A stretch of 64,000 bases of DNA from Burkholderiales bacterium (GCA_036381055.1 DASVDO010000009.1:1628-65627), one strand, 5' to 3'. Counted from the stretch's first letter, positions 4,876 through 23,580 are shown. A program made the numbers and translations. Notes: a model not told the origin generated them from the sequence alone.

Positions 4876-5433
4876 TTGGGTAAAGAATCCCACTACAGCA
4901 GCAAGAAGGACCGGGTCTTCGTCCGCGCCATCCAGGGCCAGTACAGCCTGAAGGACGAGCTGGCGCGGCTGCGCTCGCTGCCGCGCGTCATCAAGGGCCG
5001 CGACCTGACCTTCAACGACGGCCCGCAGTCCTTCTCCAAGCACTTCATCGAGCCGGTGGACGGGCTGGCGCAGACGCTGCACGTGCACCTCGAGGAGTAC
5101 GCGCCGGGCGGGCGGACGCAGAAGCACGGCCACGTCAACGAGGCCGCCTTCTACATCCTCGACGGCAAGGGCTACGAGGTGCACGACGGCGTGCGCTACG
5201 ATTGGAGCGCCGGCGACGTGGCGATCGTGCACATGAACTGCGTGCACCAGCACTTCAACGCCGACCCGGACAAGCCGGCGCGCGCGCTGGTGCTCAAGCC
5301 CAAGCCGCTCATCATGTTCATGAACATGCTGTTCCAGCAGAGCGTGATCCCGCGGCCCAAGGAGCCGGCGACGCCGGCCGGCGTGGGCTTCGAGCCGAGG
5401 AACCTGGAAGACAACTTCAACCACGACGAATGA
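4876..5433 (+). CDS. Monocupin protein (metal-binding cupin; paralog of 9213-9788)
   Basis: Canonical cupin motif 1 [20 protein letters not shown] (G-x5-HxH-x3-E-x6-G) and motif 2 [19 protein letters not shown] start with an AAGGA RBS. Roughly three-quarters identical by eye to the 9213 product. Confidence 0.85.
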   Translation: MGKESHYSSKKDRVFVRAIQGQYSLKDELARLRSLPRVIKGRDLTFNDGPQSFSKHFIEPVDGLAQTLHVHLEEYAPGGRTQKHGHVNEAAFYILDGKGYEVHDGVRYDWSAGDVAIVHMNCVHQHFNADPDKPARALVLKPKPLIMFMNMLFQQSVIPRPKEPATPAGVGFEPRNLEDNFNHDE

Positions 5434-6545
5434 AGAACGCGACCGTTTCGGAAGATTTCGCCAAAAAGTTCGCCACCGAGAAGGAGACGCCCTACACGCG
5501 CTGGGTGAAGGGCGAGGGGCTTGACCTCATCAGCTCCTTCTACGTGCCGAGCCTGCACACGGTCGAGCTCAAGCCCTGGGCGCGGCGCGGCGGGCGCGCC
5601 GTGTTCATGAACCACGACGCCTCGCGCACCTCGAACGACTGCTACGTGTGCGAGATCCCGCCCGGCAAGAGCCTCGCGCCGCAGCGCCAGCTGTTCGAGG
5701 AGATGATCTACGTGCTCGACGGGCGCGGCTCGACCGCGGTGTGGAACGACGCCGGCAAGCGCGTGCAGTTCGAGTGGAAGGCGGGCGCCATCTTCGCCAT
5801 CCCGCTCAACTGCTGGCACCAGCACTTCAACGGCTCGGGCGAGAAGCCGGCGCGCTACGTCGCGGTGACCAACGCGCCGGTGATCATCAACGCCTTCGGC
5901 GACCTCGACTTCGTGTTCAACACCAAGTACGACTTCAAGGACCGCTTCGACGGCGAGCCCGAGTACTTCGCCAACAAGGGCGAGCAGAAGGGGCTGCTGC
6001 TCGACACCAACTTCGTCGCCGACGCGATCAACCTGCCGCTGTTCGCCGCCAAGGAGCGCGGCGCGGGCGGCGGGCACACGCGCTTCTCGATGGCCAAGGG
6101 CTCGATGAACAGCCACATCTCGCAGTTCCCGGTCGGCACGTACAAGAAGGCGCACGCGCACGGGCCGGGCGCGCACGTGATCGTGCTCTCGGGCGAGGGC
6201 TTCAGCCTGATGTGGCCCGAGGGCGAGGAGCCGCAGCGCTTCGACTGGCGCGAGGGAACGATGATCGTGCCGCCCAACATGTGGTTCCACCAGCACTTCA
6301 ACACCGGCACCACGCCGGCGCGCTACCTCGCCTTCAAGGCCGAGGGCGTGGCGATCCGCAACGCGCAGGGCGTGCCCAAGGCGTGGATCTCCAGGCGCCT
6401 GGGCGGCGACCAGATCGACTACGCCGACGAGCGCCCCGAGATCCGCCGCTGGTTCTCCGAGGCGCTCGCCAAGCACGGCCTCAAGTCCGCGATGGACAAG
6501 GCCTACGCCGCCGAGGCGGCCGAGCTACCGCAAAAAGCCGCCTAA
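5430..6545 (+). CDS. Bicupin protein (gentisate-dioxygenase-like fold; paralog of 13958-15043)
   Basis: Two cupin domains, each ending in an HQHFN..PARY signature. Domain 1 motif is G-x5-QRQ-x3-E (His ligands replaced); domain 2 is GTYKKAHAHGPGAH. ATGA overlap with the upstream cupin. Confidence 0.85.
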   Translation: MKNATVSEDFAKKFATEKETPYTRWVKGEGLDLISSFYVPSLHTVELKPWARRGGRAVFMNHDASRTSNDCYVCEIPPGKSLAPQRQLFEEMIYVLDGRGSTAVWNDAGKRVQFEWKAGAIFAIPLNCWHQHFNGSGEKPARYVAVTNAPVIINAFGDLDFVFNTKYDFKDRFDGEPEYFANKGEQKGLLLDTNFVADAINLPLFAAKERGAGGGHTRFSMAKGSMNSHISQFPVGTYKKAHAHGPGAHVIVLSGEGFSLMWPEGEEPQRFDWREGTMIVPPNMWFHQHFNTGTTPARYLAFKAEGVAIRNAQGVPKAWISRRLGGDQIDYADERPEIRRWFSEALAKHGLKSAMDKAYAAEAAELPQKAA

Positions 6546-7237
6546 ATGGTGACAGTCACCAATTCCAATTGGTGACTGTCACCATTTTCCCGCGCAGCTA
6601 GGCGTTTCGGCCTGCCGCGCGGCTTGCGCGGCTCGCCCATGCGGTGGCCGCTGTGAGTCGCGCGTCGGATTTCGTCGATCATTTCCTGCTTGAGCGGCAC
6701 GTCGCACAGCGCTTGATACGCCGCCGCACGGCGCTCGTCTGTCGTGGCGATCGCCAGGTACGCGGGGTGCGGCCTTACGAACGTGCCGATATCGGCGCCG
6801 GTGTTCGCCGCATGGCTGGACCACCGGTATTGCGAGGGATGGCTCACCATCGCCGCGCGCACGGGATTGAGCTCGATGTATCGGTAGCAGGCCAGGGCGT
6901 ACTCCTCGGTCGTGACGATCCCGGAATGCGGCCGGCCTTCCCAGAGCGTCCCGGTACGACCCAACTTCGCGTTGATGCGCTTCGCGTGACGCTGCGCGAG
7001 GTGCTTCATCAGAAGCGCGCATCCGGTGTTCTCGCGGGGGGTGACCAGCAGATGCACATGGTTGGTCATCAGGCAATACGCATGGACGAGGCATTGGAAC
7101 CGCGCCGCGTAGGTCCCCAGCGCCACCAGGTAGTCGACATAGTCGGCTTCCTCGAAGAAGCAGTCGGCGCGGTCGTGTCCCCGCTGGATGACGTGGAGAG
7201 CGAAGTCCGGAATGACGAGGCGGGCAGTCCGCGGCAT
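6542..7237 (-). CDS. REP-associated tyrosine transposase (RAYT; IS200/IS605-like Y1 HUH transposase family)
   Basis: HUH motif in LMTNHVHLLVTP and catalytic-Tyr region ACYRYIELNPVRA. No TnpB partner. The last ~15 codons (ENGDSHQLELVTVTI) are encoded by the REP doublet itself. Confidence 0.85.
   Translation of the reverse strand: MPRTARLVIPDFALHVIQRGHDRADCFFEEADYVDYLVALGTYAARFQCLVHAYCLMTNHVHLLVTPRENTGCALLMKHLAQRHAKRINAKLGRTGTLWEGRPHSGIVTTEEYALACYRYIELNPVRAAMVSHPSQYRWSSHAANTGADIGTFVRPHPAYLAIATTDERRAAAYQALCDVPLKQEMIDEIRRATHSGHRMGEPRKPRGRPKRLAARENGDSHQLELVTVTI
6544..6587. repeat. REP doublet (REPIN-like): two inverted 21-nt REPs
   Basis: AAATGGTGACAGTCACCAATT (6544-6564), CC, AATTGGTGACTGTCACCATTT (6567-6587). 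The arms are perfect reverse complements. Confidence 0.9.
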
Positions 7238-7276
7238 AACACCTTAAACGGCGCATGCCGCGGATTGGTTGACGTT

Positions 7277-7324
7277 AAATGGTGACTGTCACCCATTCGG
7301 ATATATGGTGACTGTCACCATTTT
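7277..7324. repeat. Two direct REP copies on the 5' side of the RAYT gene
   Basis: AAATGGTGACTGTCACCC (7277-7294) and ATATGGTGACTGTCACCATTTT (7303-7324). The second abuts the TCA (= TGA) stop of the Rieske gene. Confidence 0.9.
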
Positions 7325-8688: not shown

Positions 8689-9219
8689 ATGAGCGTCTCG
8701 CGCAACGATCCATGTCCCTGCGGCAGCGGCCGGAAATACAAGAAATGCTGTGGCGCGGTACTCGCCCTGAAGCCCGAGCGGCGCGAGTGCGGCACCTGCA
8801 CCGCCTGCTGCGACGGCTGGGTGGTGGGCACGATCCGCGGCCACGAGATGAAGCCGGGCACGCCGTGCCACTTCCGCGGCGAGGGCTGCTGCACCATCTA
8901 CGCCGAGCGGCCGCAGGAACCGTGCCGCAGCTTCGTCTGCGGCTGGCTGGCGCCGGGCAGCCCGTTCCCGGAGGCGTTCCGCCCGGACCGGCTGGGGGTG
9001 ATGATCATCGGCACGCGCTGGCGCGGCCGGCCGGCGTACATCCTGCGCCACGCCGGGCGCGACCCGGACGAGCGGCTGCTAAGCTGGATGCGCGGCTTCA
9101 GCGTGCGCACCGGCGCGCCGTTCTTCTACGAGCAGGCGGGCGAGCGCTTCGGCTTCGGGCCGCGCGAGTTCCAGCACGAGATGCTGGCGCGGCTGCAATC
9201 GGGTGAGAGGCTATGGTGA
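8689..9219 (+). CDS. SEC-C motif protein fused to a YkgJ-type CxxCxxCC cysteine-cluster (Zn/Fe-chelating) domain
   Basis: N-terminal [16 protein letters not shown] (SEC-C). This is followed by [11 protein letters not shown] and [28 protein letters not shown]. Overlaps the next gene by 7 nt. Confidence 0.75.
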
Positions 9220-9788
9220 AGGACAAGACCGAATCGCACTACCACAGCAAGAAGGACCGCATCTTCGTGCGCGGCATCCAGGGCCAGTACAGCCTGAAGG
9301 ACGAGCTGAAGCGCCTGCGCTCGATGCCGCGCGTGCGCAAGGGCCGGGAGCTCAAGTTCGTCGACGGGCCGCAGGCCTACAGCCGGCACTACGTCGAGCC
9401 GAAGGACGGCATCTCGCAGATGTTCCACCTGCACCTGGAGGAGTACGCGCCGGGCGGCAGGAGCCAGAAGCACGGGCACGTCAACGAGGCCGCCTTCTAC
9501 ATTCTCGACGGCAAGGGCTACGAGATTCACGACGGCGTGCGCTACGACTGGCAGGCGGGCGACGTGGCGATCGTGCACAACAACTGCGTGCACCAGCACT
9601 TCAACGCGAGCCCCGACAAGCCGGCGCGCGCGCTGGTGATCAAGACCAAGCCGATGTACATGTTCATGAACATGCTCTTCCAGCAGCTCGTCGAGCCGCG
9701 GCCCACCGAGCCGGCGCCCGGCGCCGGGGGCTACCGCGTGCGCGAGGCGGAGAGCAACTACAACCATTCCGAGGAAGGAGACCGCTGA
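9213..9788 (+). CDS. Monocupin protein (paralog of 4876-5433)
   Basis: [20 protein letters not shown] and [27 protein letters not shown]. Confidence 0.85.
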
Positions 9789-10402
9789 TGGCCTGGGACG
9801 AATCGCGGGCGTGGAAGAAGGGCCGGAACCACCAGAAGCTCTACCAGGCGCTGCTCGACGACGCCGCCGGCGCGCCGGCGCGCAACGCCAAGCGCAGGAA
9901 GATCGTCCACCCCGAGGACATGCCCTGGGAAATGTCGCGCCAGGGGCTGCTCAAGCACCTGATCAACGAGGCCATGAACACGCGCATGGAGACGGTCGAC
10001 GCCTACATGCAGATCATCCCGCCGGGCAGCCGCTCCGGTAAGCACCGCCACCTCGCCGAGGAATGCCTGTACGTGCTGGAGGGCCGCGGCTACGACCTGC
10101 ACCAGGACTGCGACGTCGAGATCACCGACACCTACCACTGGAAGCCGCAGGACGAGATCAAGCGCTACGAATGGGAGGCGGGCGACGTGATCTACATCCC
10201 GCCCAACACCATCCACCAGCACTTCAACGCGAGCCCCGACAAGCCGGTGCGGCTGATCTCGGCGATCAATCGCATCTACAAGGCCTGCGGGCTGAACGAC
10301 CTCGAGCAGATCGAGGACGCGCCGGAGTACGACCCGAACGTGGTGCTCACCGCCGAGCTGGTCGAGCAGTACCTCAAGGCGAAGAGCAAGGTGCCGGCTT
10401 GA
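9788..10402 (+). CDS. Monocupin protein, second type
   Basis: GSRSGKHRHLAEECLYVLEG (HxH-x3-E) and [29 protein letters not shown] junction with the upstream cupin. Confidence 0.8.
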   Translation: MAWDESRAWKKGRNHQKLYQALLDDAAGAPARNAKRRKIVHPEDMPWEMSRQGLLKHLINEAMNTRMETVDAYMQIIPPGSRSGKHRHLAEECLYVLEGRGYDLHQDCDVEITDTYHWKPQDEIKRYEWEAGDVIYIPPNTIHQHFNASPDKPVRLISAINRIYKACGLNDLEQIEDAPEYDPNVVLTAELVEQYLKAKSKVPA

Positions 10403-11625
10403 GCAGCGTCGCGGCCGCGCCGGCCAAGCCGGCGCATCGCTGGCGCGAGCTGTGGCTGATCACCGTCGGCCACGGGCTCACGCACTGGTACCCGGCGACC
10501 TTCTACCTGCTGCTGCCGCTGATCGCGCACGAGCTCGGGCTGTCGTACAGCCAGATCGGCCTGATCATGACCTGCCAGTACGTCGCCTCGGCGATCGCCA
10601 ACGTGTCGGGCGGCATCCTGGTCGACACGGTGGGGCGCAAGGGCCTGCTGATGGCGGTGTCGCTTTTCTGGGTCGGCTTCCCGTACCTGCTGATCGGCTT
10701 CACGCACAGCTACGCGATGCTGCTCGTCTGCGTGGCGCTGGTCGGCACCGGCAACAGCCTGTGGCATCCGACGGCCATCCCGACGCTCGGCAGCCGCTAC
10801 CCCGAGCGCAAGGGGCTGGTGCTGTCGCTGCACGGCATGGGCGGCAACGTCGGCGACGCGGTCGCGCCGATCGTGGTCGGCGCCGCGCTCGCGGCGTTCT
10901 CGTGGCGCGAGGTGGTGGCGTTCAACGTCGCGCCGGGCCTGGTGGTCGCGGTGCTGATGTTCGTGTTCCTCGGCTCGCTGCGCCTGGGGCAGAAGAAGCA
11001 CGCCGCCGAGGGGCAGTCGCTCGCCGAGTACGTGCGGGGGCTGCGCAGGCTGTTCGCCGACCGCTCGCTGATCCTGCTCTCGACCGGCTCGTCGTTCCGC
11101 ACCATGACGCAGACCGCGCTGCTCACCTTCCTGCCGGTCTACCTGGCGAACGACATGGGCTACGGCCCGGCGCTGGTCGGCGCGTGCCTGTTCGCCGTGC
11201 AGGCGGCGGGCTTCGCCGCGGCGCCGGTCGCCGGGCACCTCTCCGACCGCATGGGGCGCAAGAACATCCTGATGGGCGCCATGGCCTCCAGCGCCGTGGT
11301 GCTGGTGGCGATGGGCGCGATCGGCGGCTCGCCGCTGTTCGTCGTGCTGGTCGCGGTGCTCGGCTTCTTCCTCTACGCCACCCGGCCGGTGATCCAGGCC
11401 TGGCTGCTCGACGCGACGCCGCGCAACCTGGGCGGCTCGAGCATCGGCGTGCTGTTCGGCGCGCAGGCGGTCGGCGCCTCGCTCGGGCCGCTGTTCGGCG
11501 GCATGGTGGCGGACCGCTGGGGGCTGCTCGCCACGTTCTACTTCCTCGCCTTCACGATCGTCATCGCCAACCTGCTGGTGTTCTGGATCCCGGCGGTCGG
11601 GTCGCGCGAGCGCGGCGCCGCTTGA
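10399..11625 (+). CDS. MFS transporter
   Basis: About 12 predicted hydrophobic helices; the GGILVDTVGRKG loop is the MFS signature between TM2 and TM3. TTG start in a TTGA overlap; start uncertain. Confidence 0.8.
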   Translation: MSSVAAAPAKPAHRWRELWLITVGHGLTHWYPATFYLLLPLIAHELGLSYSQIGLIMTCQYVASAIANVSGGILVDTVGRKGLLMAVSLFWVGFPYLLIGFTHSYAMLLVCVALVGTGNSLWHPTAIPTLGSRYPERKGLVLSLHGMGGNVGDAVAPIVVGAALAAFSWREVVAFNVAPGLVVAVLMFVFLGSLRLGQKKHAAEGQSLAEYVRGLRRLFADRSLILLSTGSSFRTMTQTALLTFLPVYLANDMGYGPALVGACLFAVQAAGFAAAPVAGHLSDRMGRKNILMGAMASSAVVLVAMGAIGGSPLFVVLVAVLGFFLYATRPVIQAWLLDATPRNLGGSSIGVLFGAQAVGASLGPLFGGMVADRWGLLATFYFLAFTIVIANLLVFWIPAVGSRERGAA

Positions 11626-12452
11626 GGCCGCTCGCCGTCCTGGCGCTCGCCCTGCCGCTCGCCGCGCAGGCGGCGGAGGTCACCGTGATCCGGCCGAGCG
11701 CCTTCATCGGCGCCGACGCCGTCTACCACATCGCGCTCGACGGCCGGCCGCTGCGCGACATCGAGACGCGCCAGCACGTGCGCTTCGACGTGCCCGACGG
11801 CCGGCACGTGCTCGCGGTGCGCTGCCCGAAGCCGATGAATCTCGAGTACGCCGAGACGCGCATCGAGGAGCAGCTCGGGCCGGCGCCGGCGTTCTTCGTC
11901 ATCGAGCCGAAGTTCGACTGCGTGACGCTCACGCGCATCGACGCGCGCGCGGCGGCGCCGCTGCTCGGCAACACCCGCCTGCGCACCGACACGTCGACCC
12001 GCTACGAGGCGGGCAAGGTGCGGCCGAGCGCCGCGCTCGAGACCGCCTCGCCGCCCGCGCCGGCGGCCGCCGACGGCGCCGCCTCGCCGGGCGCCGCCTC
12101 GCCGAGCGCCGCCTGGGTGGAGGCGTTCAACAGCCGCGACCCGGCGCGCATCGCCGCGCTCTACGACAGCCACGCGGTGCTGATCGGCGCCGACGCGGCG
12201 CGGCCGGCGGTGGGCCGGGCGGCGATCGCCGCGTATTACGCCGGCGTGGCCGGGCGGCCGATGGACCGCGTGGCGCTCGGCGAGCACCAGGTGCGCGTCT
12301 ACGGCGACTGGGCGATCGACAGCGGCCTGTGCAACTTCTTCGAGGTGCGCGACGGCAGGTCCTCGGTGAGCGCCGCGCGCTACACGCTCGTCTGGCGCAG
12401 GCGCGACCGGCGATGGCTGATCGTGGAGCACCACTCGTCGCGCGTTCCTTGA
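11622..12452 (+). CDS. Secreted two-domain protein: N-terminal beta-rich (DUF2846-like) domain plus C-terminal SgcJ/EcaC (NTF2/SnoaL-like, DUF4440) domain
   Basis: Signal peptide LRPLAVLALALPLAAQAAE, an Ala/Pro linker, and C-terminal WVEAFNSRDPARIAALYDSHAVL...WLIVEHHSS. TTG start in a TTGA overlap. Confidence 0.65.
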   Translation: MRPLAVLALALPLAAQAAEVTVIRPSAFIGADAVYHIALDGRPLRDIETRQHVRFDVPDGRHVLAVRCPKPMNLEYAETRIEEQLGPAPAFFVIEPKFDCVTLTRIDARAAAPLLGNTRLRTDTSTRYEAGKVRPSAALETASPPAPAAADGAASPGAASPSAAWVEAFNSRDPARIAALYDSHAVLIGADAARPAVGRAAIAAYYAGVAGRPMDRVALGEHQVRVYGDWAIDSGLCNFFEVRDGRSSVSAARYTLVWRRRDRRWLIVEHHSSRVP

Positions 12453-13945
12453 TCCGCTTCCACGAAGGCGACGAGCCGCACTTCCACGACTGGTCGCCCG
12501 AGGCGCGCGCCGCGGCGGCGCAGGCGATCTGGCAGGCCGAGAACGTCGAGCTGACCACGGTCGGCATCGACATCGGCAGCTCGACCTCGCACCTGATGTT
12601 CTCGCGCGTGCACCTGCAGAGGAAGACGCAGCTCCTGTCGAGCGAGTTCGCGGTCGTCGGCCGCGAGGTGCTGTGGCGCTCGCCGATCCTGTTCACCCCC
12701 TTCCTGCCCGACTTCACCATCGACGCCGGGCGGCTGGGCGCCTTCATCGACGGCGCGTACGCCGAGGCCGGGCTCGACCCGCAGCGCATCGACAGCGGCG
12801 CGGTGATCCTCACCGGCGAGGCGATCAAGCGGCGCAACGCGCAGGCGATCGCAGGGCTGTTCGCGGCGCAGGCCGGCAAGCTGGTCTGCGCCTCCGCGGG
12901 GCACCACATGGAGTGCGTGCTCGCCGCGCACGGCGCCGGGGCGACGGCGATCTCGCGCCGCACGCACCGCCCGGTGCTGAACGTCGACATCGGCGGCGGC
13001 ACCACCAAGCTCGCGCTGATCGAGAACGGCGAGATCCGCTCGACCTGCGCCATCGCCGTGGGCGGACGGCTGATCGTGCAGGACGCCGCCGGGCGCCTCA
13101 CCCGCCTCGAAGCGTCCGCGCTGCAAGCGGCGCGCAGCCTCGGCACGGAGCTGGCGCTGGGCCAGGCGCTCACCGCCCCGGCGAAAGACAAGCTCGTCGA
13201 CGTCCTGGCGGAGGCCGTCCTCGAGCTGATCCTGGGCAGGCCGCTCGGCGCGCTGGCGAGGGAGCTGCTGCTCACCGGGCCGCTCGAGCGCACCGTCGAG
13301 CCGCACCTCGTCACTTTCAGCGGCGGGGTGTCGGAGTACCTGTTCGGCCGCGAGGCGCGCGGCTTCGGCGACATCGCGCAGCCGCTCGCCGAGCGCATGC
13401 GCGCGGCGCTCGCGCCGACCGGCAGGCTGCTCGACCCGGGGCAGGGCATACGCGCCACGGTGATCGGCGCCTCGCAGTTCACCGTGCAGCTCTCGGGCAA
13501 GACGATCCACCTGTCGCGCGCCGCGCGGCTGCCGCTGCGCAACGTGCCCGTGGTGTTCCCGCCGCTCGAGCTGGAGCGCGCCTTCGACGCCGCCGGCGTG
13601 GCGCGCGCCATCGGCGCGGCGCTGGCCAGGCTCGAGCTGCCGGACGACCAGCCGGCAGCGGTCGGCATCCGCTGGCGCGGCGAGCCGTACTATGCGAGGC
13701 TGCGCGAGCTCGCCGCCGGCATCGCGCAGGCGGCGCGCCCCGGGGCGCCGCTGGTGGTGCTGGTCGACCGCGACGTCGGCCGGCTGCTCGGCCACATCCT
13801 GGAGCAGGAGCTGGGCGTGGCCGGCGTGATCGCGATCGACGGCGTACAGCTGCGCGAGCTGGACTATGTCGACATCGGCGAGCTGCTGCAGCCGAGCGAG
13901 GTGGTGCCGCTGGTGATCAAGTCGTTGCTGTTTCCACTGCATTGA
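12449..13945 (+). CDS. EutA-family ASKHA ATPase (homolog of the ethanolamine ammonia-lyase reactivating factor), without eutBC
   Basis: Co-linear with EutA: VGIDIGSSTSHLMFSR, DSGAVILTGEA, ASAGHHMECVLAAHGAGA, LNVDIGGGTTK, VTFSGGVSEY, IRATVIGASQFTVQLSG, LPLRNVPVV, C-terminal VVPLVIKSLLFP. Start is either TTG 12449 (TTGA overlap) or ATG 12413. Confidence 0.85.
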   Translation: MIRFHEGDEPHFHDWSPEARAAAAQAIWQAENVELTTVGIDIGSSTSHLMFSRVHLQRKTQLLSSEFAVVGREVLWRSPILFTPFLPDFTIDAGRLGAFIDGAYAEAGLDPQRIDSGAVILTGEAIKRRNAQAIAGLFAAQAGKLVCASAGHHMECVLAAHGAGATAISRRTHRPVLNVDIGGGTTKLALIENGEIRSTCAIAVGGRLIVQDAAGRLTRLEASALQAARSLGTELALGQALTAPAKDKLVDVLAEAVLELILGRPLGALARELLLTGPLERTVEPHLVTFSGGVSEYLFGREARGFGDIAQPLAERMRAALAPTGRLLDPGQGIRATVIGASQFTVQLSGKTIHLSRAARLPLRNVPVVFPPLELERAFDAAGVARAIGAALARLELPDDQPAAVGIRWRGEPYYARLRELAAGIAQAARPGAPLVVLVDRDVGRLLGHILEQELGVAGVIAIDGVQLRELDYVDIGELLQPSEVVPLVIKSLLFPLH

Positions 13946-13957
13946 GGAGATAGACCC

Positions 13958-15043
13958 ATGGACGCAGGCGTGGCGCCGCGCATCGGCGTGGATCCTTATC
14001 TCGACTGGCTGAAGAACGAGCGCATCCCGGTGGTCGAGGACTTCGGCGTGCACCTGCCCGAGGTCGAGACCCGGCCGTGGCCGCGCTACGGCGTCGGCGG
14101 CGCGGCGGTGCACCTCAAGGGGCGCGGCGACTTCGTGTCGATGTTCGTGCTCGACCTCGCGCCGGGCGCCGCGAGCGAGCCGCAGCGCCACCTGTACGAG
14201 GAGGTGATCTACGTGCTGTCGGGCCGCGGCAGCACCACCATCGAGGCCGCCGACGGGCGCCGGCACAGCTTCGAGTGGGGGCCGCGCAGCCTGTTCGCGA
14301 TCCCGCTCAACACCCGCTACCGGCACTTCAACGGCAGCGGCGCCGAGCGCGCGCGCCTCGCCGTCACCACCAACCTGCCGGCGGTGCTGAACATGTTCCA
14401 CAACGAGGCGTTCGTGTTCGACAACCCGTTCCGCTTCGACGAGCGCCTGGGCGAGGCGAAGCACTTCGCCGGCGAGGGCGACTTCACCCCGGTGCGCCCG
14501 GGGCAGCACATGTGGCAGACCAACTTCGTGCCCGACCTGGCGGCGATCGCGCTGAAGGGCTGGGACGAGCGCGGCAAGGGCTCGAAGAACATCATGTTCA
14601 TCCTCGCCGACGGCACGATGCACGCGCACATCTCGGAGATGCAGCCCGGCAGCTACAAGAAGGCGCACCGCCACGGGCCCGACTTCCACGTGATGTGCGT
14701 CACCGGGCACGGCTACTCGCTGCTCTGGTACGAGGGCGAGGCCGACTTCCGCCAGGTGCGCTGGAAGCACGGCACGGTGTTCGCGCCGCCCGACCGCATG
14801 TTCCACCAGCATTTCAACACCAGCGAGCGGCCGGCGCGCTACCTCGCCACCGCCTTCGGCAGCCTGCGCTACCCGTTCACGGAGGCCAAGCGGCGCGCCC
14901 TGCTGGGCGGCGGCGACGGGCAGGGCGCGGTGGCGGTGAGCGTGAAGCTGGGCGGCGACCAGATCGAGTTCGAGGACCAGTCGCCGCGCATCGAGGCGCT
15001 GTACCGCGAGGAGCTCGCGCGCGCGAAGAATGCGCCCGCCTGA
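13958..15043 (+). CDS. Bicupin protein (paralog of 5430-6545)
   Basis: Domain 1 is G-x5-QRH-x3-E ... YRHFNGSGAERARL. Domain 2 is GSYKKAHRHGPDFH ... MFHQHFNTSERPARYL. Confidence 0.85.
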   Translation: MDAGVAPRIGVDPYLDWLKNERIPVVEDFGVHLPEVETRPWPRYGVGGAAVHLKGRGDFVSMFVLDLAPGAASEPQRHLYEEVIYVLSGRGSTTIEAADGRRHSFEWGPRSLFAIPLNTRYRHFNGSGAERARLAVTTNLPAVLNMFHNEAFVFDNPFRFDERLGEAKHFAGEGDFTPVRPGQHMWQTNFVPDLAAIALKGWDERGKGSKNIMFILADGTMHAHISEMQPGSYKKAHRHGPDFHVMCVTGHGYSLLWYEGEADFRQVRWKHGTVFAPPDRMFHQHFNTSERPARYLATAFGSLRYPFTEAKRRALLGGGDGQGAVAVSVKLGGDQIEFEDQSPRIEALYREELARAKNAPA

Positions 15044-16208
15044 GGTCGCGGTCGTCGGCGCCGGCCCGGTCGGGCTGACGGTCGCGCTGTCGCTCGCGCG
15101 CCAGGGCGTGGCGGTGCGCGTGCTGGAGGCCGAGCCGGCGCTCACCGAGGACCACCGCGCCGGATCGTTCCATCCGCCGACCCTCGAGATGCTCGCGCCG
15201 TTCGGCGTCACCGAGGCGATGCACCGCATCGGCATCAAGGTGCCGCGCTGGCAGATCCGCGACCGGCGCCAGGGCGTGATCGTGGAATGGGACCTGGGCC
15301 TGATCGCCGACCTGACGCCCTATCCGTACCGCTTCCACCTGGAGCAGTTCAAGCTCACGCCGATCCTGCTCGACAAGCTGCGCGCCTTCCCGCACGCCTC
15401 GGTCGCCTTCTCGACCGAGCTGCTCGACGCCGTCCCGCACGACGATTCGCTGACGCTGAAGACGAGCGCCGGCACGCTGCGCGCGTCCTGGCTCGTCGGC
15501 TGCGACGGCGGCCGCAGCACCGTGCGCCGGCTGATCGGCACCGAGTTCGAGGGCTTCACCTGGCCGGAGCGCTTCGTCGTGATCAGCACGCCGCACGACT
15601 TCGCGGCGCACGGCTTCACCTCGAACGCCTACGTCGCCGATCCGCGGGAATGGGCGGCGGTGTTCCACATGCCTGGCCTGTGGCGCATGGCGTTCCCGGT
15701 GCACCCGCACGAGGACGAGGCGCAGGTGCTCGACGCCGAAGCGGTCGAAGCGCGCCTGCAGCGCTTCCTGCCGCGGCCGCACCGCTACGAGGTGCTGCAG
15801 AAGGGCATCTACCGCGTGCACCAGCGGGTGGCGAGGGACTGGCGCCGGGGGCGCATGCTGCTCGCGGGCGACGCGGCGCACCTCAACAACCCGCTCGGCG
15901 CCTTCGGCCTGAACGGCGGGCTGCACGACGCGGTGATGCTGGGCGAGTACCTCGGGCGGGTGTGCCGCGGCGAGGCCGGCGAGGACCTGCTCGACCTCTA
16001 CGTGCGCAAGCGCCGCGCCGCCAACATCGAGTTCGTGCAGACGCAGTCGATCGGCAACAAGCGCATGCTCGAGGAAGCCGATCCGCAGAAGCGCGAGAAG
16101 ACCTTCGCCGAGCTGCGCCGCATCGCCGCCGACCGCGAGGCGGCGCGCGATTTCCTGCTGCGCTCGTCGATGATCTGGAGCGTGCGCCGGGCGGCGCAGG
16201 TCGCCTGA
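15030..16208 (+). CDS. FAD-dependent aromatic-ring monooxygenase (PheA/TfdB/UbiH family)
   Basis: GxGxxG motif VAVVGAGPVGLTVAL, a DG motif region CDGGRSTVR, and GD motif LLAGDAAHLNNPLGAFGLNGG. 14-nt overlap with the bicupin gene. Confidence 0.9.
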   Translation: MRPPEVAVVGAGPVGLTVALSLARQGVAVRVLEAEPALTEDHRAGSFHPPTLEMLAPFGVTEAMHRIGIKVPRWQIRDRRQGVIVEWDLGLIADLTPYPYRFHLEQFKLTPILLDKLRAFPHASVAFSTELLDAVPHDDSLTLKTSAGTLRASWLVGCDGGRSTVRRLIGTEFEGFTWPERFVVISTPHDFAAHGFTSNAYVADPREWAAVFHMPGLWRMAFPVHPHEDEAQVLDAEAVEARLQRFLPRPHRYEVLQKGIYRVHQRVARDWRRGRMLLAGDAAHLNNPLGAFGLNGGLHDAVMLGEYLGRVCRGEAGEDLLDLYVRKRRAANIEFVQTQSIGNKRMLEEADPQKREKTFAELRRIAADREAARDFLLRSSMIWSVRRAAQVA

Positions 16209-16549: not shown

Positions 16550-16572
16550 TTCGGGGTCAGGGTCGTGATTCA
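16547..16572. repeat. ATTCGGGG-family intergenic element (stop-to-stop)
   Basis: TGATTCGGGGTCAGGGTCGTGATTCA. The first 3 nt are the stop of the + gene and the last 3 nt are the stop of the - gene. 22 of 24 nt are identical to the 53471-53494 copy. Confidence 0.8.
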
Positions 16573-16938
16573 GCCGACGCTGATCGCGACCTTGTCGGGA
16601 TAGAACGCCAGGTACTCGCGGATGGCGGCCATCTCGTCGAAGGGCTGCTCGTAGCTCCACACGGCGTCGCGCGGGCCGCCCTTCAGCGAGAAGTAGGACG
16701 CGTCGCCCTTGAACGGGCAGTGCGTGCGGTGCGTCGAGCGCTCCAGGCGCTCCATGCGCACGTCCTTGCGCGGGAAGTAGTAGACCACCGGGTAGCTGCC
16801 TTCCTTCATCGCCAGCGCCTCGTCGGTCTCGGCGATCAGCTCGCCGCCGAAGCTCGCGCGCACGCGCTTTGCAGCGGGCGTCACGTCGATGCGGTGGTCG
16901 GGACGTTCCTTGAATCCGGGTGCGGGATTGCCGGCCAT
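16570..16938 (-). CDS. DUF427 domain protein
   Basis: 122 aa; YFPRKDV....THCPFKGDASYFSL....WSYE.P is the pattern typical of DUF427. GGAGG RBS. Confidence 0.75.
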   Translation of the reverse strand: MAGNPAPGFKERPDHRIDVTPAAKRVRASFGGELIAETDEALAMKEGSYPVVYYFPRKDVRMERLERSTHRTHCPFKGDASYFSLKGGPRDAVWSYEQPFDEMAAIREYLAFYPDKVAISVG

Positions 16939-16946
16939 GGTGCCTC

Positions 16947-17708
16947 CTAGATCATCGCCGAGCCGCCGTCGACCACCAGTGTCTGGCCGGTCATGAAGGC
17001 GGCGTCGTCGCTCGCGAGGAAGCTTACCGCGCCGACCAGGTCTTCGGGTGTCTCGTCGCGCGCGATGGCGCGCGTGGCGCGCGAGCGCTCGCCCGCTTTC
17101 AGGTGCGCTTCGTGCCTGACCACGTTCTCCGACAGGGTGAATCCCGGCGCCAGCGCGTTCACCGTGATGCCGTCGCCGCCCAGCTCGCGCGCCAGGCCGC
17201 GCGTCATGGCGATCACCGCGCCCTTGCTGGCGATGTAGTGCAGGAAACGCGGTACGCCCTTGAGCGGCGCGCCGGAGGCCAGGTTGATGATGCGGCCGTA
17301 GCCGCCGCGGCGCATGTGCGGCACGCAGGCGCGGCAGCACAGGAACACGCCCAGGGTGTTCACCTCCATCACGCGCCGCCATTCGTCGGGCGGGATGCGC
17401 TCGAACGGTCGCAGCTCGAGCGTGCTGAAGAGCGCCGCGTTGTTCACCAGGATGTCGATCCGGCCGAACGCCTTCACCGCCTGCGCCGCCATGCGCGCCA
17501 CCGCGCCCTCGTCGGCCACGTCGACCTCGACGCCGAGCGCCGGGGCGCCGGTCGCCTGCGCGATCTGCGCGGCGGCGACGTCGTAGCCGCGCAGGTCGGC
17601 GACGACCACCGAGGCGCCGTCCTCGGCGAGGCGCCGCGCGAGCGCCTTGCCGATGCCGCTGCCGGCGCCGGTGACGATCGCGCTCCTGCCCTGGAGCCGC
17701 CGGCTCAT
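16947..17708 (-). CDS. Short-chain dehydrogenase/reductase (SDR)
   Basis: TGAGSGIGKA cofactor motif, NNAA, and the catalytic YIASKGAV (YxxxK). Confidence 0.9.
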   Translation of the reverse strand: MSRRLQGRSAIVTGAGSGIGKALARRLAEDGASVVVADLRGYDVAAAQIAQATGAPALGVEVDVADEGAVARMAAQAVKAFGRIDILVNNAALFSTLELRPFERIPPDEWRRVMEVNTLGVFLCCRACVPHMRRGGYGRIINLASGAPLKGVPRFLHYIASKGAVIAMTRGLARELGGDGITVNALAPGFTLSENVVRHEAHLKAGERSRATRAIARDETPEDLVGAVSFLASDDAAFMTGQTLVVDGGSAMI

Positions 17709-19009
17709 CGCATCATCGAGTTGGGAAGCACCAGGGCGATCTGCGGGAAGGCGACCAGGATGCCGACGCAGACGATCATCGCCAGCCAGAACGGCATGAT
17801 GCCGGCGAAGATGCGGCCCATCGGCACGTCCTGCGCGACGCCCTTCACCACGAACACGTTGATGCCCACCGGCGGGCTGATCAGGCCCATCTCCAGCACG
17901 ATCGCCACGAAGATGCCGAACCACACCGGGTCGATGCCGAGCGCGATGATGATCGGGAAGACGATCGGCACGGTGAGCACCATCATGGCGAAGCCCTCGA
18001 GGAACATGCCGAGCACGAGGTAGGCGGCGAGCAGGATGGCGAGCACGCCGGCGGCGGAGAGCTCCAGGCCGGTCAGCACGCTCGCGAGGTCGCTGGGAAT
18101 GCGCGACAGCGCGAGGAACGGCGAGAAGATGTGCGCGCCGATCAGGATCAGGAACACCATCGCCGTGGTGCGCACGGTCTGCAGCAGCGCGTCGCGCAGC
18201 GCCGCGAAGCCGAGCCGGCGGCGCCACAGCGCGTGCGCCATGGTGAGCAGCGCGCCGACCGCGGCCGCCTCGTTCACCGTGAACACCCCGGCGTAGATGC
18301 CGCCGATGGTGATCAGCACGACGGCGACGAAAGGCGCCGCGCCGGCGAGCGCCGCGAAGCGGGCGCGCAGCGCGAGGCGCTCGCCGGGCGGCCCGTACTG
18401 CGGCCGCCAGGCGCACAGCAGCACGACCGTCGCCACGAACAACGCCGTCAGCAGCAGCCCGGGCAGCACGCCGGCGAGGAACAGCCGGCCGATCGACTCC
18501 TCGGTGAGCAGCGCGTAGACCACCAGCACCGTCGAGGGCGGGATGAGGATGCCGAGCGTGCCGCCCGCGGCGATCACGCCGGTGGCGAGCCGCGTGTCGT
18601 AGCGGTAGCGCTCCATCTCCGGCAGCGATACCCGGCCCATGGTCACCGCCGAGGCGACGGAGGAGCCCGAGAGCGCGGCGAAGCCGGCGCAGGCGAGCAC
18701 GGTCGCCGAGGCGAGCCCGCCGCGCCGGTGGCCGATCCAGGCGTAGGCGGCGGCGTAGAGGTCCTTGCCCATGCCCGACACCGCGGCGAAGTTGCCCATC
18801 AGCACGAACAGCGGGATCACCGCGAACGCCTGCACCGCGGCGTGGGAGTACGGGAACGCGCCGAGGCTGTGCAGCGCGGCCTGCGGCGAGTTGAGCAGCG
18901 CCACGCCGGCCGCGCCGACCAGCGACATGGCGATGCCGATCGGCATGCGCAGGAAGAGCAGCACCAGCAGCGCCGCCATGCCGGCCAGGCCGACCAGCGT
19001 CGGGCTCAC
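17705..19009 (-). CDS. TRAP transporter large permease (DctM family)
   Basis: 434 aa and highly hydrophobic, with DctM-like blocks (GGLASATVLACAGFAALSGSSVA, GTLGILIPPS). GTG start in a GTGA overlap with dctQ. Confidence 0.85.
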   Translation of the reverse strand: MSPTLVGLAGMAALLVLLFLRMPIGIAMSLVGAAGVALLNSPQAALHSLGAFPYSHAAVQAFAVIPLFVLMGNFAAVSGMGKDLYAAAYAWIGHRRGGLASATVLACAGFAALSGSSVASAVTMGRVSLPEMERYRYDTRLATGVIAAGGTLGILIPPSTVLVVYALLTEESIGRLFLAGVLPGLLLTALFVATVVLLCAWRPQYGPPGERLALRARFAALAGAAPFVAVVLITIGGIYAGVFTVNEAAAVGALLTMAHALWRRRLGFAALRDALLQTVRTTAMVFLILIGAHIFSPFLALSRIPSDLASVLTGLELSAAGVLAILLAAYLVLGMFLEGFAMMVLTVPIVFPIIIALGIDPVWFGIFVAIVLEMGLISPPVGINVFVVKGVAQDVPMGRIFAGIMPFWLAMIVCVGILVAFPQIALVLPNSMMR

Positions 19010-19458
19010 CGCCGCCGCCAGGCCTCGCGCACCAGCACCAGCGCGAACAGCGCCATGCTCGCCGCGGTGAGCAGCTCGAACGGCCAGGTCTCGATGCGCA
19101 GCATGTTGGTCGCCTCGCCGCGGTCGCGCGAGCCGAGCGCGAACAGCGCCGCCTGCCACGCCATCAGCGCGAGCAGCGCCGCGCCGGCGAGATTCACCAG
19201 CGGGCCGGTCCAGCGCAGCGCCGGCCGCTCGAGCAGCTCGCCGAGCACGTCCACCGAGACGTGGCCGCCGGTGGCGGCGCAGTAGGGCAGGCCGAGGAAC
19301 ACGATGAGCGCCATCGCGAGCTCGGTCATCTCGTAGGCGCCGAGGAACGGCAGGCGCAGCACGTAGCGCATCAGCACGTCGAACGCCACGAGGCCCATCA
19401 GGCCCAAAAGCACCGCGCCCCCGCACAGGGCGAGGGCGCGCAGCAGGCGGTCGAACAC
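19006..19458 (-). CDS. TRAP transporter small permease (DctQ family)
   Basis: 150 aa with 4 predicted TM helices, positioned between the DctP and DctM genes. Confidence 0.85.
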   Translation of the reverse strand: MFDRLLRALALCGGAVLLGLMGLVAFDVLMRYVLRLPFLGAYEMTELAMALIVFLGLPYCAATGGHVSVDVLGELLERPALRWTGPLVNLAGAALLALMAWQAALFALGSRDRGEATNMLRIETWPFELLTAASMALFALVLVREAWRRR

Positions 19459-19459
19459 G

Positions 19460-20446
19460 CTAGCCCGAGTAGCCGGCCTTCTTCAGCATCTCGCGCGCGG
19501 GTATGCCCTTCGCCTCGGACTCGCGCACCCACTCGTCGACGATCGGGCGCAGCACCTTGGCGATGCGCTGCTGCTCCGCCTTCGACAGGGTGACGAGGTC
19601 GGCCTTGCCGCGGACGCTGTTCACGGCCTGCTCGGCGCGCTTGATGTAGACCTCGGTCGCCTTGAGCGAGAGCTGCCGGCCGGACAGCCGGTCGATCGCC
19701 GCGCGGGCCTGCGGCGGCAGGCTGTCGTACTTCTGCCGGTTCATGGCGATCAGGAACGCCGAGCGGCCGAAGATCGGCCCCGAGATGGTGAAGCCGTGCG
19801 CCACCTCGCCCAGCTTGAAGTCGAGGATGGTGGTGAACGGCACCATGGCGCCGTCCATCGTGCCGCGCTCCAGGCCCGGGTACACCTGCGTGATCGGCGC
19901 GGCGATCGGCACCGCGCCCATCGCCTCGATCTGCTTCGCCTGCTGCGCCGAGGGCGCGCGGATGCGCTGGCCCTTGAGGTCGTCGAGCGAGCGGTACGCC
20001 TTGTGGCGCGACATCAGGCCGGCGTCCTCGGCGCCCCAGAGGGCGATCACCTTGGTTCCCTTGTACTCGGGCAGCAGATACGGATCGAGCACGTCCCACA
20101 TCATGTGGGTGGCCGCGATGCCGTCCTCCTTGAGTCCCGGCAGCTCGATCATCTGCGTGCGCGGGAAGGCGGACGAGGTGTAGCCGGGCAGCGTGAAGCA
20201 CAGGTCGACCACGCCGTCGGCCGTCTGGCGGAAAAGCTCGGGCGGCTTGCCGCCGAGCTGCATCGAGGGATAGAGCGTCACCTTCACCTTGCCGCCGGTG
20301 GCCTTCGCCACCTGGTCGGCCCAGGGCACGATGATCTCGCGGTAGATGATGTGCACCGGCGGCACGAACGTGGAAAGGCGCAGCTCCTGCGCACCGGCGC
20401 CGCTCGCGGCGAGCGCGAGCAGGGCCGCACCGGCCAGACGTTTCAT
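19460..20446 (-). CDS. TRAP transporter substrate-binding protein (DctP family)
   Basis: Signal peptide MKRLAGAALLALAASGAGAQ. DctP-like sequence. GGAGGAGGA RBS. Confidence 0.85.
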   Translation of the reverse strand: MKRLAGAALLALAASGAGAQELRLSTFVPPVHIIYREIIVPWADQVAKATGGKVKVTLYPSMQLGGKPPELFRQTADGVVDLCFTLPGYTSSAFPRTQMIELPGLKEDGIAATHMMWDVLDPYLLPEYKGTKVIALWGAEDAGLMSRHKAYRSLDDLKGQRIRAPSAQQAKQIEAMGAVPIAAPITQVYPGLERGTMDGAMVPFTTILDFKLGEVAHGFTISGPIFGRSAFLIAMNRQKYDSLPPQARAAIDRLSGRQLSLKATEVYIKRAEQAVNSVRGKADLVTLSKAEQQRIAKVLRPIVDEWVRESEAKGIPAREMLKKAGYSG

Positions 20447-20468
20447 GGGTCGTCCTCCTCCTAGAGGT

Positions 20469-21365
20469 TTACGGCGCGATTGTAGCGACAACGTCCTGGT
20501 ACACAACCGGCCGGCCGAGCAGGCCGATGTCCGCCGCGAAGCGGTTCATGGCGTCCAGGGCGATCCGGGCGATGCCGTGCTGGTAGTAGGGGGCGTCGCG
20601 GCGGATCAGCTCGGCGATCAGCTCGGCCTCGGCCGGCGGGAAGAGCCGCCGGCCGATCTCGGTGGCGCGCTGCGGGTCTTCCTTCAGCGCCGCCTGCGCC
20701 TGCCGCACCGCCTCGACCGCCGCGCGGGCGAGCTCGGGGCGCTCGCGCAGCGTGCGATCGGTGCAGGCGAGCGCCGGGAAGGTATAGCCCTTCACCTCCG
20801 GCGGCGCATCGCGCCGCGCGTCGAGCACCACCGTGCCGACGCCCCGGCGCGCGGCGATCTCGGCGCCCATGCCGTTCGCCCAGAAGCCGTCGATCCGGCC
20901 TTCCTCGAGCGCCTTCGCCGCCATCAGGCCGAACGACGCCTTTTCGCCGGCGGCGCCCGGCACCGGCCCGATCTTCACGTCGCGCTCGGGGTCGATGCCG
21001 GCGCGCCTGAGCATCTGCCGCAGGCCGTCGACCGGGCCGGGCGCCGCGCCGATGCGCAGGGCGCGCACCACGGAGATGTCGCCGCGCTTCGGCTTCAGGT
21101 CGGCGCGCACGACGAGGAACCAGTACATGCGCTGCGCGAGCGCGCACAGCAGCTTCGCGCCTTGCCAGTCCGGGAACGCGTAAAGCACCGCGTGCGCCGC
21201 GCCGCCGACGAAGTCGATCCTGCCCTCGCGCAGCTCCTCGTAGGTCTTGGTGACGGGATAGATCAGCTCGACCGTCGCGCCGGGAAGGAAGCCGAGCTCG
21301 ACCGCCGCGATCGCCGGGAAGTACGACGGCGAGACGAGATCCGGGATCGCCACGCGGATGGCCAT
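20469..21365 (-). CDS. NMT1/THI5-like (NitT/TauT-type SBP fold) protein without a signal peptide
   Basis: 298 aa; IDFVGGAAH / GFWANGMGAE blocks typical of NMT1-like SBP-fold proteins. No N-terminal hydrophobic leader. Confidence 0.6.
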   Translation of the reverse strand: MAIRVAIPDLVSPSYFPAIAAVELGFLPGATVELIYPVTKTYEELREGRIDFVGGAAHAVLYAFPDWQGAKLLCALAQRMYWFLVVRADLKPKRGDISVVRALRIGAAPGPVDGLRQMLRRAGIDPERDVKIGPVPGAAGEKASFGLMAAKALEEGRIDGFWANGMGAEIAARRGVGTVVLDARRDAPPEVKGYTFPALACTDRTLRERPELARAAVEAVRQAQAALKEDPQRATEIGRRLFPPAEAELIAELIRRDAPYYQHGIARIALDAMNRFAADIGLLGRPVVYQDVVATIAP

Positions 21366-21374
21366 GAGCGGCTC

Positions 21375-21382
21375 AGTATAAT
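21375..21382. promoter_or_regulatory. Shared AT-rich -10 region (AGTATAAT) in a 29-bp divergent intergenic gap
   Basis: TATAAT (21377-21382) lies 12 nt before ATG 21395. On the other strand TATACT (21380-21375) lies 9 nt before ATG 21365. Neither gene has an RBS. Confidence 0.35.
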
Positions 21383-21394
21383 CGCCGCTTCCCC

Positions 21395-22561: not shown

Positions 22562-22668
22562 CCCAAAAACAGGGACAGACCACGTTTTCTCCTTTTTAAA
22601 CTCCTTTTTAAAAAACGTGGTCCGTCCCTGGTTTAGGGTGAAAAAGGTGGTCTGTCCCTGGTTTAGGG
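22562..22668. repeat. Convergent spacer built entirely of three copies of a ~27-nt element (CCCWAAAMCAGGGACRGACCACSTTTT) plus a 12-nt tandem duplication
   Basis: Copy A is 22562-22588 (+). Copies B (22611-22638) and C (22641-22668) are in inverted orientation. CTCCTTTTTAAA is repeated at 22589-22600 and 22601-22612. Confidence 0.85.
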
Positions 22669-23163: not shown

Positions 23164-23528
23164 TGCGCCGGCGGCGGCGCGGGCGGCACGGCCTTCCAGC
23201 CGCCCGGGCATTCCTTGACGTAGGGGTAATAGCCGCGGCTCTGCTCGCAGTAGTACCAGTAGCCCTGCGACTGCGCCTGCGCGTCGCCGCGCTCTACGTA
23301 CACCGGCGGCGCGGCCGGCGGAGCGACCACCACCGGGGCATAGTAGTAAGGCGGCGGGTAGTACCACGCCGGACCCCAGAACGGGCTCCAATGCGGGCCG
23401 AGGTGCAGGCCGATGCCGAAATGGACACGGCCGTGCCGGTGCCGCCCGTGAGCGAAGGCCGGCAGCGCGGCGCCCAGCGCTGCCACGGCGAGAACCAGAC
23501 CGGCGACCCACTTCGACGGCTTGTTCAT
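23160..23528 (-). CDS. Secreted Tyr/Pro-rich protein of unknown function
   Basis: Signal peptide MNKPSKWVAGLVLAVAALGAALPAFA. C-terminal GYWYYCEQSRGYYPYVKECPGGW motif. Confidence 0.65.
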   Translation of the reverse strand: MNKPSKWVAGLVLAVAALGAALPAFAHGRHRHGRVHFGIGLHLGPHWSPFWGPAWYYPPPYYYAPVVVAPPAAPPVYVERGDAQAQSQGYWYYCEQSRGYYPYVKECPGGWKAVPPAPPPAQ

Positions 23529-23580
23529 GGGCTCAGGTTACGCGCCCATGGCCGCCGAAGGGGTGACCAGTTGTTACGAA

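Follow-up and report, generated by a model that had tools for sequence, protein, structure and literature searches.

What is the role of an EutA-family ATPase that is encoded in the middle of a cluster of cupin genes? The question is raised by a stretch of 64,000 nucleotides from a Burkholderiales bacterium (GCA_036381055.1 DASVDO010000009.1:1628-65627), here called the window, in which eight co-directional open reading frames (ORFs; g1 to g8 in gene order) occupy positions 8689 to 16208 of the + strand. A first-pass annotation of this sequence had taken the eight products for a single enzyme system. Our analysis points to a smaller unit: the conserved core of the cluster is a pair formed by the EutA-like ATPase gene g6 and the bicupin gene g7, which is present in hundreds of bacterial genomes and is apparently undescribed. 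From the evidence presented below, we put at about even the odds that g6 uses ATP to load or reactivate the metal of a cupin enzyme taking part in the catabolism of hydroxy-aromatic acids.

Reciprocal association of EutA-like and bicupin genes

The pair was surveyed from both sides. For the ATPase, one genome per species was searched with an alignment of EutA-like proteins, which gave at least 600 stretches and at least 543 confirmed relatives, and 80 loci were examined by tblastn. A bicupin gene was directly adjacent to the ATPase gene and on the same strand in 61 of these 80 loci and lay within 10 kb, not adjacent, in another 7; in 6 more no bicupin was seen and a contig end was nearby. For the bicupin, 80 metagenome loci were taken from at least 600 matches, and the ATPase gene was adjacent in 63 of them and nearby in 1, with 11 loci ending on one side. 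The first-pass annotation had asked how often EutA-like genes accompany HQHFN-type cupins in loci lacking eutBC; both surveys bear out such a link strongly, and our full-text literature search found no description of a link between EutA and cupins. The order of the two genes flips and their adjacency stays, the bicupin gene being upstream in 32 and downstream in 29 of the 61 adjacent loci. Furthermore, 47 of these loci had a single adjacent bicupin copy, 8 had two, 4 had three and 2 had four, and locus L031 carried five bicupin genes within 8 kb. The presence of one ATPase gene with several bicupin genes fits a shared accessory factor.

The hosts of the pair include Beta-, Alpha- and Gammaproteobacteria, Chloroflexota, Gemmatimonas and a "Deltaproteobacteria" metagenome-assembled genome (MAG). 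Among the cultured carriers are Aromatoleum toluclasticum, Pigmentiphaga soli, Marinobacter species, Terripilifer ovatus and Phyllobacterium zundukense. In addition, four sparsely annotated matches were found in a plasmid collection, with Phyllobacterium and Sinorhizobium megaplasmids as carriers. Long ORFs running across both genes (in L071 and others) were considered as gene fusions and discarded, as they are high-GC artefacts in a different frame.

The ATPase gene was also found to lack its classical partner, as had been proposed. Using EutB and EutC of E. coli K-12 as tblastn queries, no match was obtained in the 64-kb window or within 10 kb in 88 related loci, and the EutB and EutC Pfam families were absent from the gene tables examined.

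Sequence features of the ATPase and the bicupin

The product of g6 matches the EutA family PF06277 over its full length (377.3 bits against a cut-off of 27; residues 34-495 correspond to positions 2-474 of the 475 in the model) and is 36% identical to E. coli EutA, also over the full length. All four NCBIfam EutA equivalogs, NF007991 to NF007994, scored below their cut-offs (295/598, 279/769, 230/799 and 192/952 bits). Because of these scores and the lack of eutBC, g6 does not belong to the class "EutA, ethanolamine ammonia-lyase reactivase", and the automatic label "ethanolamine utilization protein EutA", which is misleading in hundreds of genomes, is corrected here. Our analysis indicates that a large and phylogenetically broad branch of the EutA family is committed to an uncharacterised bicupin instead of a cobalamin enzyme; at least 150 protein clusters at 50% identity outscore E. 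coli EutA against g6. The ATP-binding motifs of the ASKHA superfamily are invariant in g6 and its relatives (alignments A1 and A3): D41-I-G-S-S-T-S (phosphate-1), D180-I-G-G-G-T-T-K (phosphate-2) and G292-G293 (adenosine).

Additionally, g6 carries an N-terminal H-x5-H-x-H motif (H5, H11 and H13, numbered from the TTG start) that is likewise invariant in both alignments. It lies within residues 1-33, outside all EutA models; E. coli EutA begins at the phosphate-1 strand and is devoid of this tail. A motif of the form H-[DEG]-x(2-7)-H-x-H was present in 81 of 89 EutA-like ORFs of the loci and directly follows the start codon in dozens of alphaproteobacterial genes (for example MHELGFDHGHM). Among more distant relatives, counted in the 138 anchorable sequences of the best 150 representatives at 50% clustering, 46 had the motif and 25 more had tails with at least three His, some of them poly-His/Asp, 71 in total. 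The AlphaFold2 (AF2) model of g6 had a mean predicted local distance difference test score (pLDDT) of 80.5 with low confidence in the N-terminal tail, which is consistent with a flexible tail. Foldseek matched this model only to generic ASKHA folds (Ppx/GppA, HgdC, PilM, MreB and EutJ), and a phmmer search of g6 against the PDB matched no solved structure.

Two other observations concern this family. Both L022 (a Sulfuritalea MAG) and L025 (Aromatoleum toluclasticum) have three paralogues of the EutA family in a span of about 20 kb; the more distant of these, at 41-49% identity, carry poly-His/Asp sequences at the N-terminus (for example FDHHHDDGEIADHDHDHF). In L099, a g7 orthologue (73% identical) is preceded by an EutA-like gene (5222-7011) that gene calling divided into ORFs of 408 and 188 aa, owing either to a frameshift, in which case it may be a pseudogene, or to a mistake in the assembly.

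The g7 product is a bicupin, with two Cupin_2 stretches and an AF2 model made of two beta-barrel halves (mean pLDDT 82.8). Its C-terminal barrel contains a metal-binding motif, HxHx4H...HxH, whose residues H237, H239, H244, H283 and H285 were invariant in 39 sequences, and a conserved C-terminal GG(D/N)QIE(Y/F)ED motif is also present; the N-terminal site is degenerate (Q76, H78 and E82, with H123 variable). Foldseek gave a probability of 1.0 to MncA, the oxalate decarboxylase OxdC, vicilins and gentisate 1,2-dioxygenase (GDO), all of them generic bicupins. Since the structure searches returned generic superfamily matches with low template modelling (TM) scores, they provided no functional assignment for g6 or g7. 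PDB sequence matches to g7 were all local, the best being to 3bu7, of the gentisate 1,2-dioxygenase type (E=7e-6, about 70 residues). The gentisate 1,2-dioxygenase model TIGR02272 did not match g7, and the 5-aminosalicylate dioxygenase model MabB (NF049978) gave 27 bits against a cut-off of 650. None of the curated families searched claims g7, and its names in public sources are generic, the one annotated example, from Phyllobacterium, being called "hypothetical protein".

The two-subunit hydroquinone dioxygenase PnpCD/HapCD was considered for the monocupin and bicupin pairs and set aside, as PnpD was neither among the PDB profile matches at E<=1 nor in the top 50 of Foldseek. Arrays of four or five g7-type paralogues (49-59% identical to g7), in the same orientation and upstream of a single EutA-like gene, were observed in L031 (2500-11500), L038 and L043, often together with an ADH_Zn gene and a gene with a weak match to PF14518 (iron-containing redox enzyme).

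Mosaic make-up of the cluster and its catabolic setting

Profile searches (Pfam and NCBIfam) upheld the domain calls of the first-pass annotation for all eight products (Table 1), and the junctions that it had listed are all present: a 7-nt overlap at 9213-9219, TGATG at 9786-9790, TTGA at 10399-10402, 11622-11625 and 12449-12452, a 12-nt gap at 13946-13957 and a 14-nt overlap at 15030-15043. The TTG starts of g4, g5 and g6 are assumptions of that annotation. For g6, an ATG at 12413 is at least as likely as the TTG at 12449 and would extend the overlap with g5 to 40 nt, the arrangement called in the syntenic contig L090; with either start, the genes at every junction overlap or are at most 12 nt apart. 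The g4 junction has an identical 4-nt overlap in the L090 gene call. Terminator-like or promoter-like sites beyond chance were not detected inside the cluster. Such tight gene packing is usual in catabolic operons. The window has a G+C content of about 70%, and its nearest relatives are uncultured Burkholderiales (L009, 57-95% protein identity).

Table 1. Genes of the cluster and selected neighbouring features (positions in the window).
Feature	Position	Strand	Match or similarity
g1, SEC-C motif and Cys-rich region (CxxCxxCC)	8689-9219	+	PF02810, E=1e-10
g2, 191-aa monocupin, HxH..E..H	9213-9788	+	Cupin_2
g3, 204-aa monocupin, HxH..E..H	9788-10402	+	Cupin_2, Auxin_BP and Cupin_7 matches
g4, major facilitator superfamily (MFS) transporter, assumed TTG start	10399-11625	+	MFS_1, E=1.6e-52
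g5, predicted exported protein, DUF4440/SgcJ NTF2-like (residues 163-275)	11622-12452	+	DUF4440, E=3e-14
g6, EutA-family ASKHA ATPase	12413 or 12449-13945	+	PF06277, E=1.6e-112
g7, 361-aa bicupin	13958-15043	+	two Cupin_2 stretches
g8, group-A flavin adenine dinucleotide (FAD) monooxygenase	15030-16208	+	FAD_binding_3, E=6e-60
Paralogous 185-aa monocupin	4876-5433	+	76% identical to g2
Paralogous 371-aa bicupin	5430-6545	+	41% identical to g7
NMT1-like gene	20469-21365	-	
Second FAD monooxygenase	21395-22561		40% identical to g8
Three-part xanthine-dehydrogenase-type enzyme	24817-28842		

The complete gene order was kept only in near relatives, L009 and L090, and in both of these a peptidase M24 gene, missing from the window, separates g7 from g8; in L091, g7 is followed by M24 and no FAD gene. 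In these three loci the M24 gene (about 393 aa, weakly matching the ectoine hydrolase DoeA; 11073-12290 in L090) adjoins g7 with the same 14-nt overlap. The start codon of g8 coincides with the M24 start position of L090 and the body of g8 aligns to the L090 FAD gene from about codon 6, which points to a clean deletion by which the FAD gene acquired the start of the M24 gene. The g8 gene is a variable member of the cluster, found after M24 in L090 and absent from L091, and L095 has a different FAD gene on the other strand. In three further loci (L095-L097) the upstream region is as in the window, with genes for a solute-binding protein, a 185-aa cupin, a 371-aa bicupin, a RAYT-type transposase and a Rieske protein; then come SEC-C, cupin, cupin, MFS, NTF2 and M24 genes, at 77-92% identity to the window (41-42% for NTF2). 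Neither an EutA-like nor a bicupin gene lies between NTF2 and M24 in these loci, so that g6 and g7 form a cassette that is present or absent within an otherwise conserved operon.

The remaining genes behave differently from the pair. When the 80 EutA-anchored loci were searched by tblastn up to 10 kb from the anchor, 5 had the g2 and g3 pair, 3 had a g1 homologue and 1 had g5 and g8; most EutA-like/bicupin pairs are accompanied by none of the other six genes. Homologues of g3 always adjoin a g2 homologue (L009, L022, L025, L067, L083, L090, L095-L098 and L171), and in L095-L098 this monocupin pair occurs without the EutA-like/bicupin pair. The g5 product consists of a signal peptide, predicted by eye from the sequence, a region without a family match and the DUF4440/SgcJ domain (TIGR02246, 43.9 bits, above cut-off). 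Its identity is 41-67% in relatives that share 90-95% in their cupins, so that it evolves much faster than the latter. For g1, SEC-C was the sole Pfam match (PF02810, 41.7 bits against a cut-off of 20.4, residues 5-22); YkgJ/UPF0153 (PF03692), considered for its CxxCxxCC region, gave no match at E<=10.

According to the first-pass annotation, translational coupling would fix the proportions of all eight products, with g2, g3 and g7 forming a hetero-oligomeric cupin oxygenase, g6 acting as its reactivase and g1 as a Zn/Fe accessory factor, and a flavin hydroxylase and a transporter completing the system. The tight junctions agree with this, as do the whole gene order conserved in L009 and L090, the g2 and g3 pair within 10 kb of EutA-like/bicupin genes in L022, L025, L067, L083 and L171, and a g1 homologue at such a distance in L035 and L036. 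However, g1 to g5 and M24 persist without g6 and g7 in L095-L097, the M24 gene of L009, L090 and L091 is missing from the window, most pairs lack the other six genes, and homologues of g1 also occur beside CobW and xanthine-dehydrogenase-type genes in the absence of cupins. Furthermore, cytoplasmic cupins can have neither the membrane protein g4 nor g5, with its predicted signal peptide, as a stoichiometric partner. Because of the presence or absence of the cassette, the location of g4 and g5, the fast evolution of g5 and the cupin-free g1 homologues, a single eight-part complex is not supported, and we consider it very unlikely. The orphan EutA-like gene and its conserved link to a cupin stand, with the bicupin g7 as partner and not the monocupins g2 and g3; the eight-gene machine is better described as a lineage-specific mosaic.

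The g1 homologues (71-73% identical) of L092 (8001-9552), L093 and L094 lie, without cupins, between divergent MFS genes and Fer2/MoCoBD genes; the Fer2 and molybdopterin-binding genes are of the xanthine-dehydrogenase type, and in L092 and L093 a CobW/COG0523 GTPase gene directly follows the g1 homologue. These neighbours hint at a metal-related accessory role for g1, which we regard as an accessory, lineage-specific gene.

Upstream of the cluster, the paralogous monocupin and bicupin genes of Table 1 are joined by an ATGA overlap of the monocupin stop with the bicupin start; they follow a solute-binding protein gene, no EutA-like gene adjoins them, and their homologues in L022 and L025 form a g2-g3-bicupin triplet. 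They are followed by a RAYT-type IS200-like Y1 transposase gene (6542-7237, - strand) with a pair of palindromic REP-like repeats of about 21 nt on each side (6543-6588 and 7276-7324; AAATGGTGACAGTCACCAATT). In L090 and L095 the RAYT gene occupies the same intergenic position on the opposite strand and is 59-61% identical, with flanking genes at 88-95%. A small cupin ORF of about 167 aa (63495-63998, - strand) at the window edge is weakly related to the cluster cupins (26-38% identical).

Neighbour families were counted in 85 clustered loci (L001-L088 without three duplicates). The recurrent ones were TctC binding proteins (30 loci), NMT1-like proteins (29), MFS transporters (24), UbiD decarboxylases (23; best NCBIfam match VdcC), class II aldolase-like proteins (19; best match the PhtC-like 3,4-dihydroxyphthalate decarboxylase, below cut-off), LigXa-type Rieske oxygenases (10) and PDR-type reductases (7), together with GFO-family dehydrogenases, aldehyde dehydrogenases and MarR, IclR and LysR regulators. 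These families point to a setting of hydroxy-aromatic (di)carboxylate breakdown. The window also encodes a LigXa-type Rieske oxygenase, two FAD monooxygenases, an NMT1-like protein, TRAP transporter genes and a xanthine-dehydrogenase-type enzyme. Its region 16570-28842, which includes DUF427, SDR, TRAP (DctM and DctP) and peroxiredoxin genes, is largely syntenic with L090 and L091.

Metal-related genes were also found next to the ATPase. In L066, L073, L084 and L085, a NicO-type Ni/Co permease gene whose product has a long His-rich loop (E=5e-11) starts 3-10 nt downstream of the ATPase gene. In L063 (a Natronospirillum MAG, 8968-12880), a LigB-type extradiol dioxygenase gene lies 68 nt upstream of the EutA-like gene and no bicupin gene is present. 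The NicO permease genes map to 11501-12229 in L066 and 6777-7511 in L073, and with L064 included the distance to the ATPase gene is 3-150 nt; the order in the NicO loci is UbiD, EutA-like, NicO, OCD, NMT1-like, there is no bicupin, and the third His of the motif is replaced in three. In L063, two RraA-like genes follow the EutA-like gene, and Rieske and GFO genes adjoin.

Proposed role of the pair and comparison with known systems

We propose that the functional unit is the two-gene module of g6 and g7. The g7 product would be a metal-dependent cupin enzyme and the client of g6, with its metal held by the invariant C-terminal His cluster, and it would most likely be a ring-cleaving dioxygenase, less likely a decarboxylase, acting on a hydroxylated aromatic acid. 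The g6 product would be a dedicated accessory protein in which ATP binding and hydrolysis, together with the flexible H-x5-H-x-H tail, could load, exchange or restore the metal of the bicupin, in parallel to EutA freeing ethanolamine ammonia-lyase of damaged cobalamin. The remaining genes of the operon (SEC-C, two monocupins, MFS, NTF2-like and FAD) may serve other pathway steps and transport, and would not be obligate partners. A role of g6 in maturation or reactivation is favoured by the reciprocal adjacency, the occurrence of several bicupins per ATPase, the His tail, the metal-related neighbours and the reactivase role known in the family. The dedicated chaperone or reactivase suggested by the first-pass annotation is thus the best-supported reading, through the conservation of the pair, the tail and the neighbours, with the difference that its client would be g7 alone.

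Several observations weigh against this proposal. Six of the 80 ATPase-anchored loci have complete flanks and no bicupin gene, 5 of the 80 bicupin-anchored loci have sequence on both sides and no ATPase gene, and the L100 orthologue has none adjacent. No gene fusion longer than 610 aa was found among the best 150 family representatives, and 67 of the 138 distant relatives lack a His-rich tail. The closest solved bicupins reach TM scores of at most 0.5 with g7, at 14-19% identity. Contact between the g6 and g7 products, the metal-related mechanism and the substrate class are what we infer from the gene context and the motifs. Lastly, the ASKHA superfamily includes true kinases and the hydantoinase/acetone-carboxylase ATPases, to which weak cross-matches were obtained.

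This last point, the invariant ATP-binding motifs, and UbiD and other decarboxylases as frequent neighbours would also suit a g6 that uses ATP for catalysis of its own, for instance as a kinase, ligase or (de)carboxylase component, on the small-molecule substrate of the bicupin. We consider this unlikely, since to our knowledge the only characterised PF06277 member is a protein reactivase, of one cobalamin enzyme, and since the N-terminal His tail and the NicO adjacency point to metal handling; moreover, a single ATPase gene accompanies up to five diverged bicupin paralogues, and in L063 a LigB dioxygenase takes the place of the bicupin. The several paralogous clients per ATPase agree equally with an Hsp70-like chaperone that folds or assembles bicupin oligomers and has no metal role, and the fold of g6 does resemble DnaK, MreB and EutJ. 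Such a chaperone appears quite improbable in view of the conserved His motif and the poly-His tails, the adjacent NicO permease, and the fact that the alternative neighbours (LigB, UbiD and Rieske) are all metal- or cofactor-dependent enzymes. An ordinary B12-enzyme reactivase, with its cobalamin client encoded elsewhere and the cupin adjacency incidental, would account for the full-length PF06277 match and the 36% identity to E. coli EutA; given that the bicupin is reciprocally adjacent in about 90% of informative loci, across phyla, that EutB and EutC are missing from the 64-kb window and from 10 kb around 88 loci, and that all NCBIfam EutA equivalog cut-offs are missed, we give this explanation hardly any credence.

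A reading of g6 as a metal-loading or reactivating factor for g7 could be extended to a large branch of EutA proteins, which would act in aromatic catabolism as ATP-driven metallochaperones or reactivases of the actin/Hsp70 fold, serving non-haem cupin enzymes and occasionally those of the LigB type, using an N-terminal His tail and in some cases encoded beside a NicO-type gene. We put this extension forward tentatively, at clearly less than an even chance. As the EutA family itself is known, our data suggest that the novelty lies in a new client class for a reactivase-family ATPase. If the proposal is true, g6 would be the first actin-fold metallochaperone or reactivase, and the pair would reveal a new way of keeping ring-cleavage enzymes active when they are oxygen-sensitive or mis-metallated, as well as explain why bicupins of this type may lack activity if produced on their own. 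The pair is present in culturable strains, which makes it testable.

Among known systems, EutA, cited in PMC12487888 as the reactivator of EutBC, is one of the closest. Both proteins share the full-length PF06277 domain, the ASKHA motifs, a gene beside that of the presumed client and, as proposed for g6, an ATP-driven release or exchange of a cofactor; they differ in that the partner of g6 is a bicupin with no B12 enzyme nearby, and in the missed equivalog cut-offs, the limited identity and the extra N-terminal tail of g6. DdrAB/PduGH, the diol dehydratase reactivase, and GlmL are functional analogues of EutA, and in DdrAB a dedicated ATPase frees its enzyme of a damaged cofactor, as we propose for g6. 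In ring cleavage, XylT-type [2Fe-2S] ferredoxins reactivate catechol 2,3-dioxygenase, and are thus likewise co-encoded accessory proteins that restore a metal-dependent ring-cleavage enzyme after inactivation of its metal centre; however, they act by reduction without ATP, have an unrelated fold and serve vicinal-oxygen-chelate enzymes, whereas here an ASKHA ATPase accompanies a cupin. On the side of the client, g7 resembles gentisate 1,2-dioxygenase in being a bicupin of about 360 aa with a His metal site in one barrel and an aromatic-acid gene context, and differs from 3bu7 in structure and sequence (Foldseek TM 0.46, 18% identity, a local match of about 70 residues) as well as in the C-terminal position of its His-rich site and in its GG(D/N)QIE(Y/F)ED motif.

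Operons for metal insertion offer another parallel. The cobalt nitrile hydratase operon combines NhlF with an activator, and COG0523/CobW proteins are GTPase metallochaperones. The combination of an enzyme, a nucleotide-dependent His-rich activator and sometimes a NicO permease recurs in the loci with NicO genes, and the g1 homologues beside CobW recall the CobW operons. We know of no ASKHA metallochaperone: the known CobW-type metallochaperones are G3E P-loop GTPases, whereas g6 is an ATPase of the actin/Hsp70 fold.

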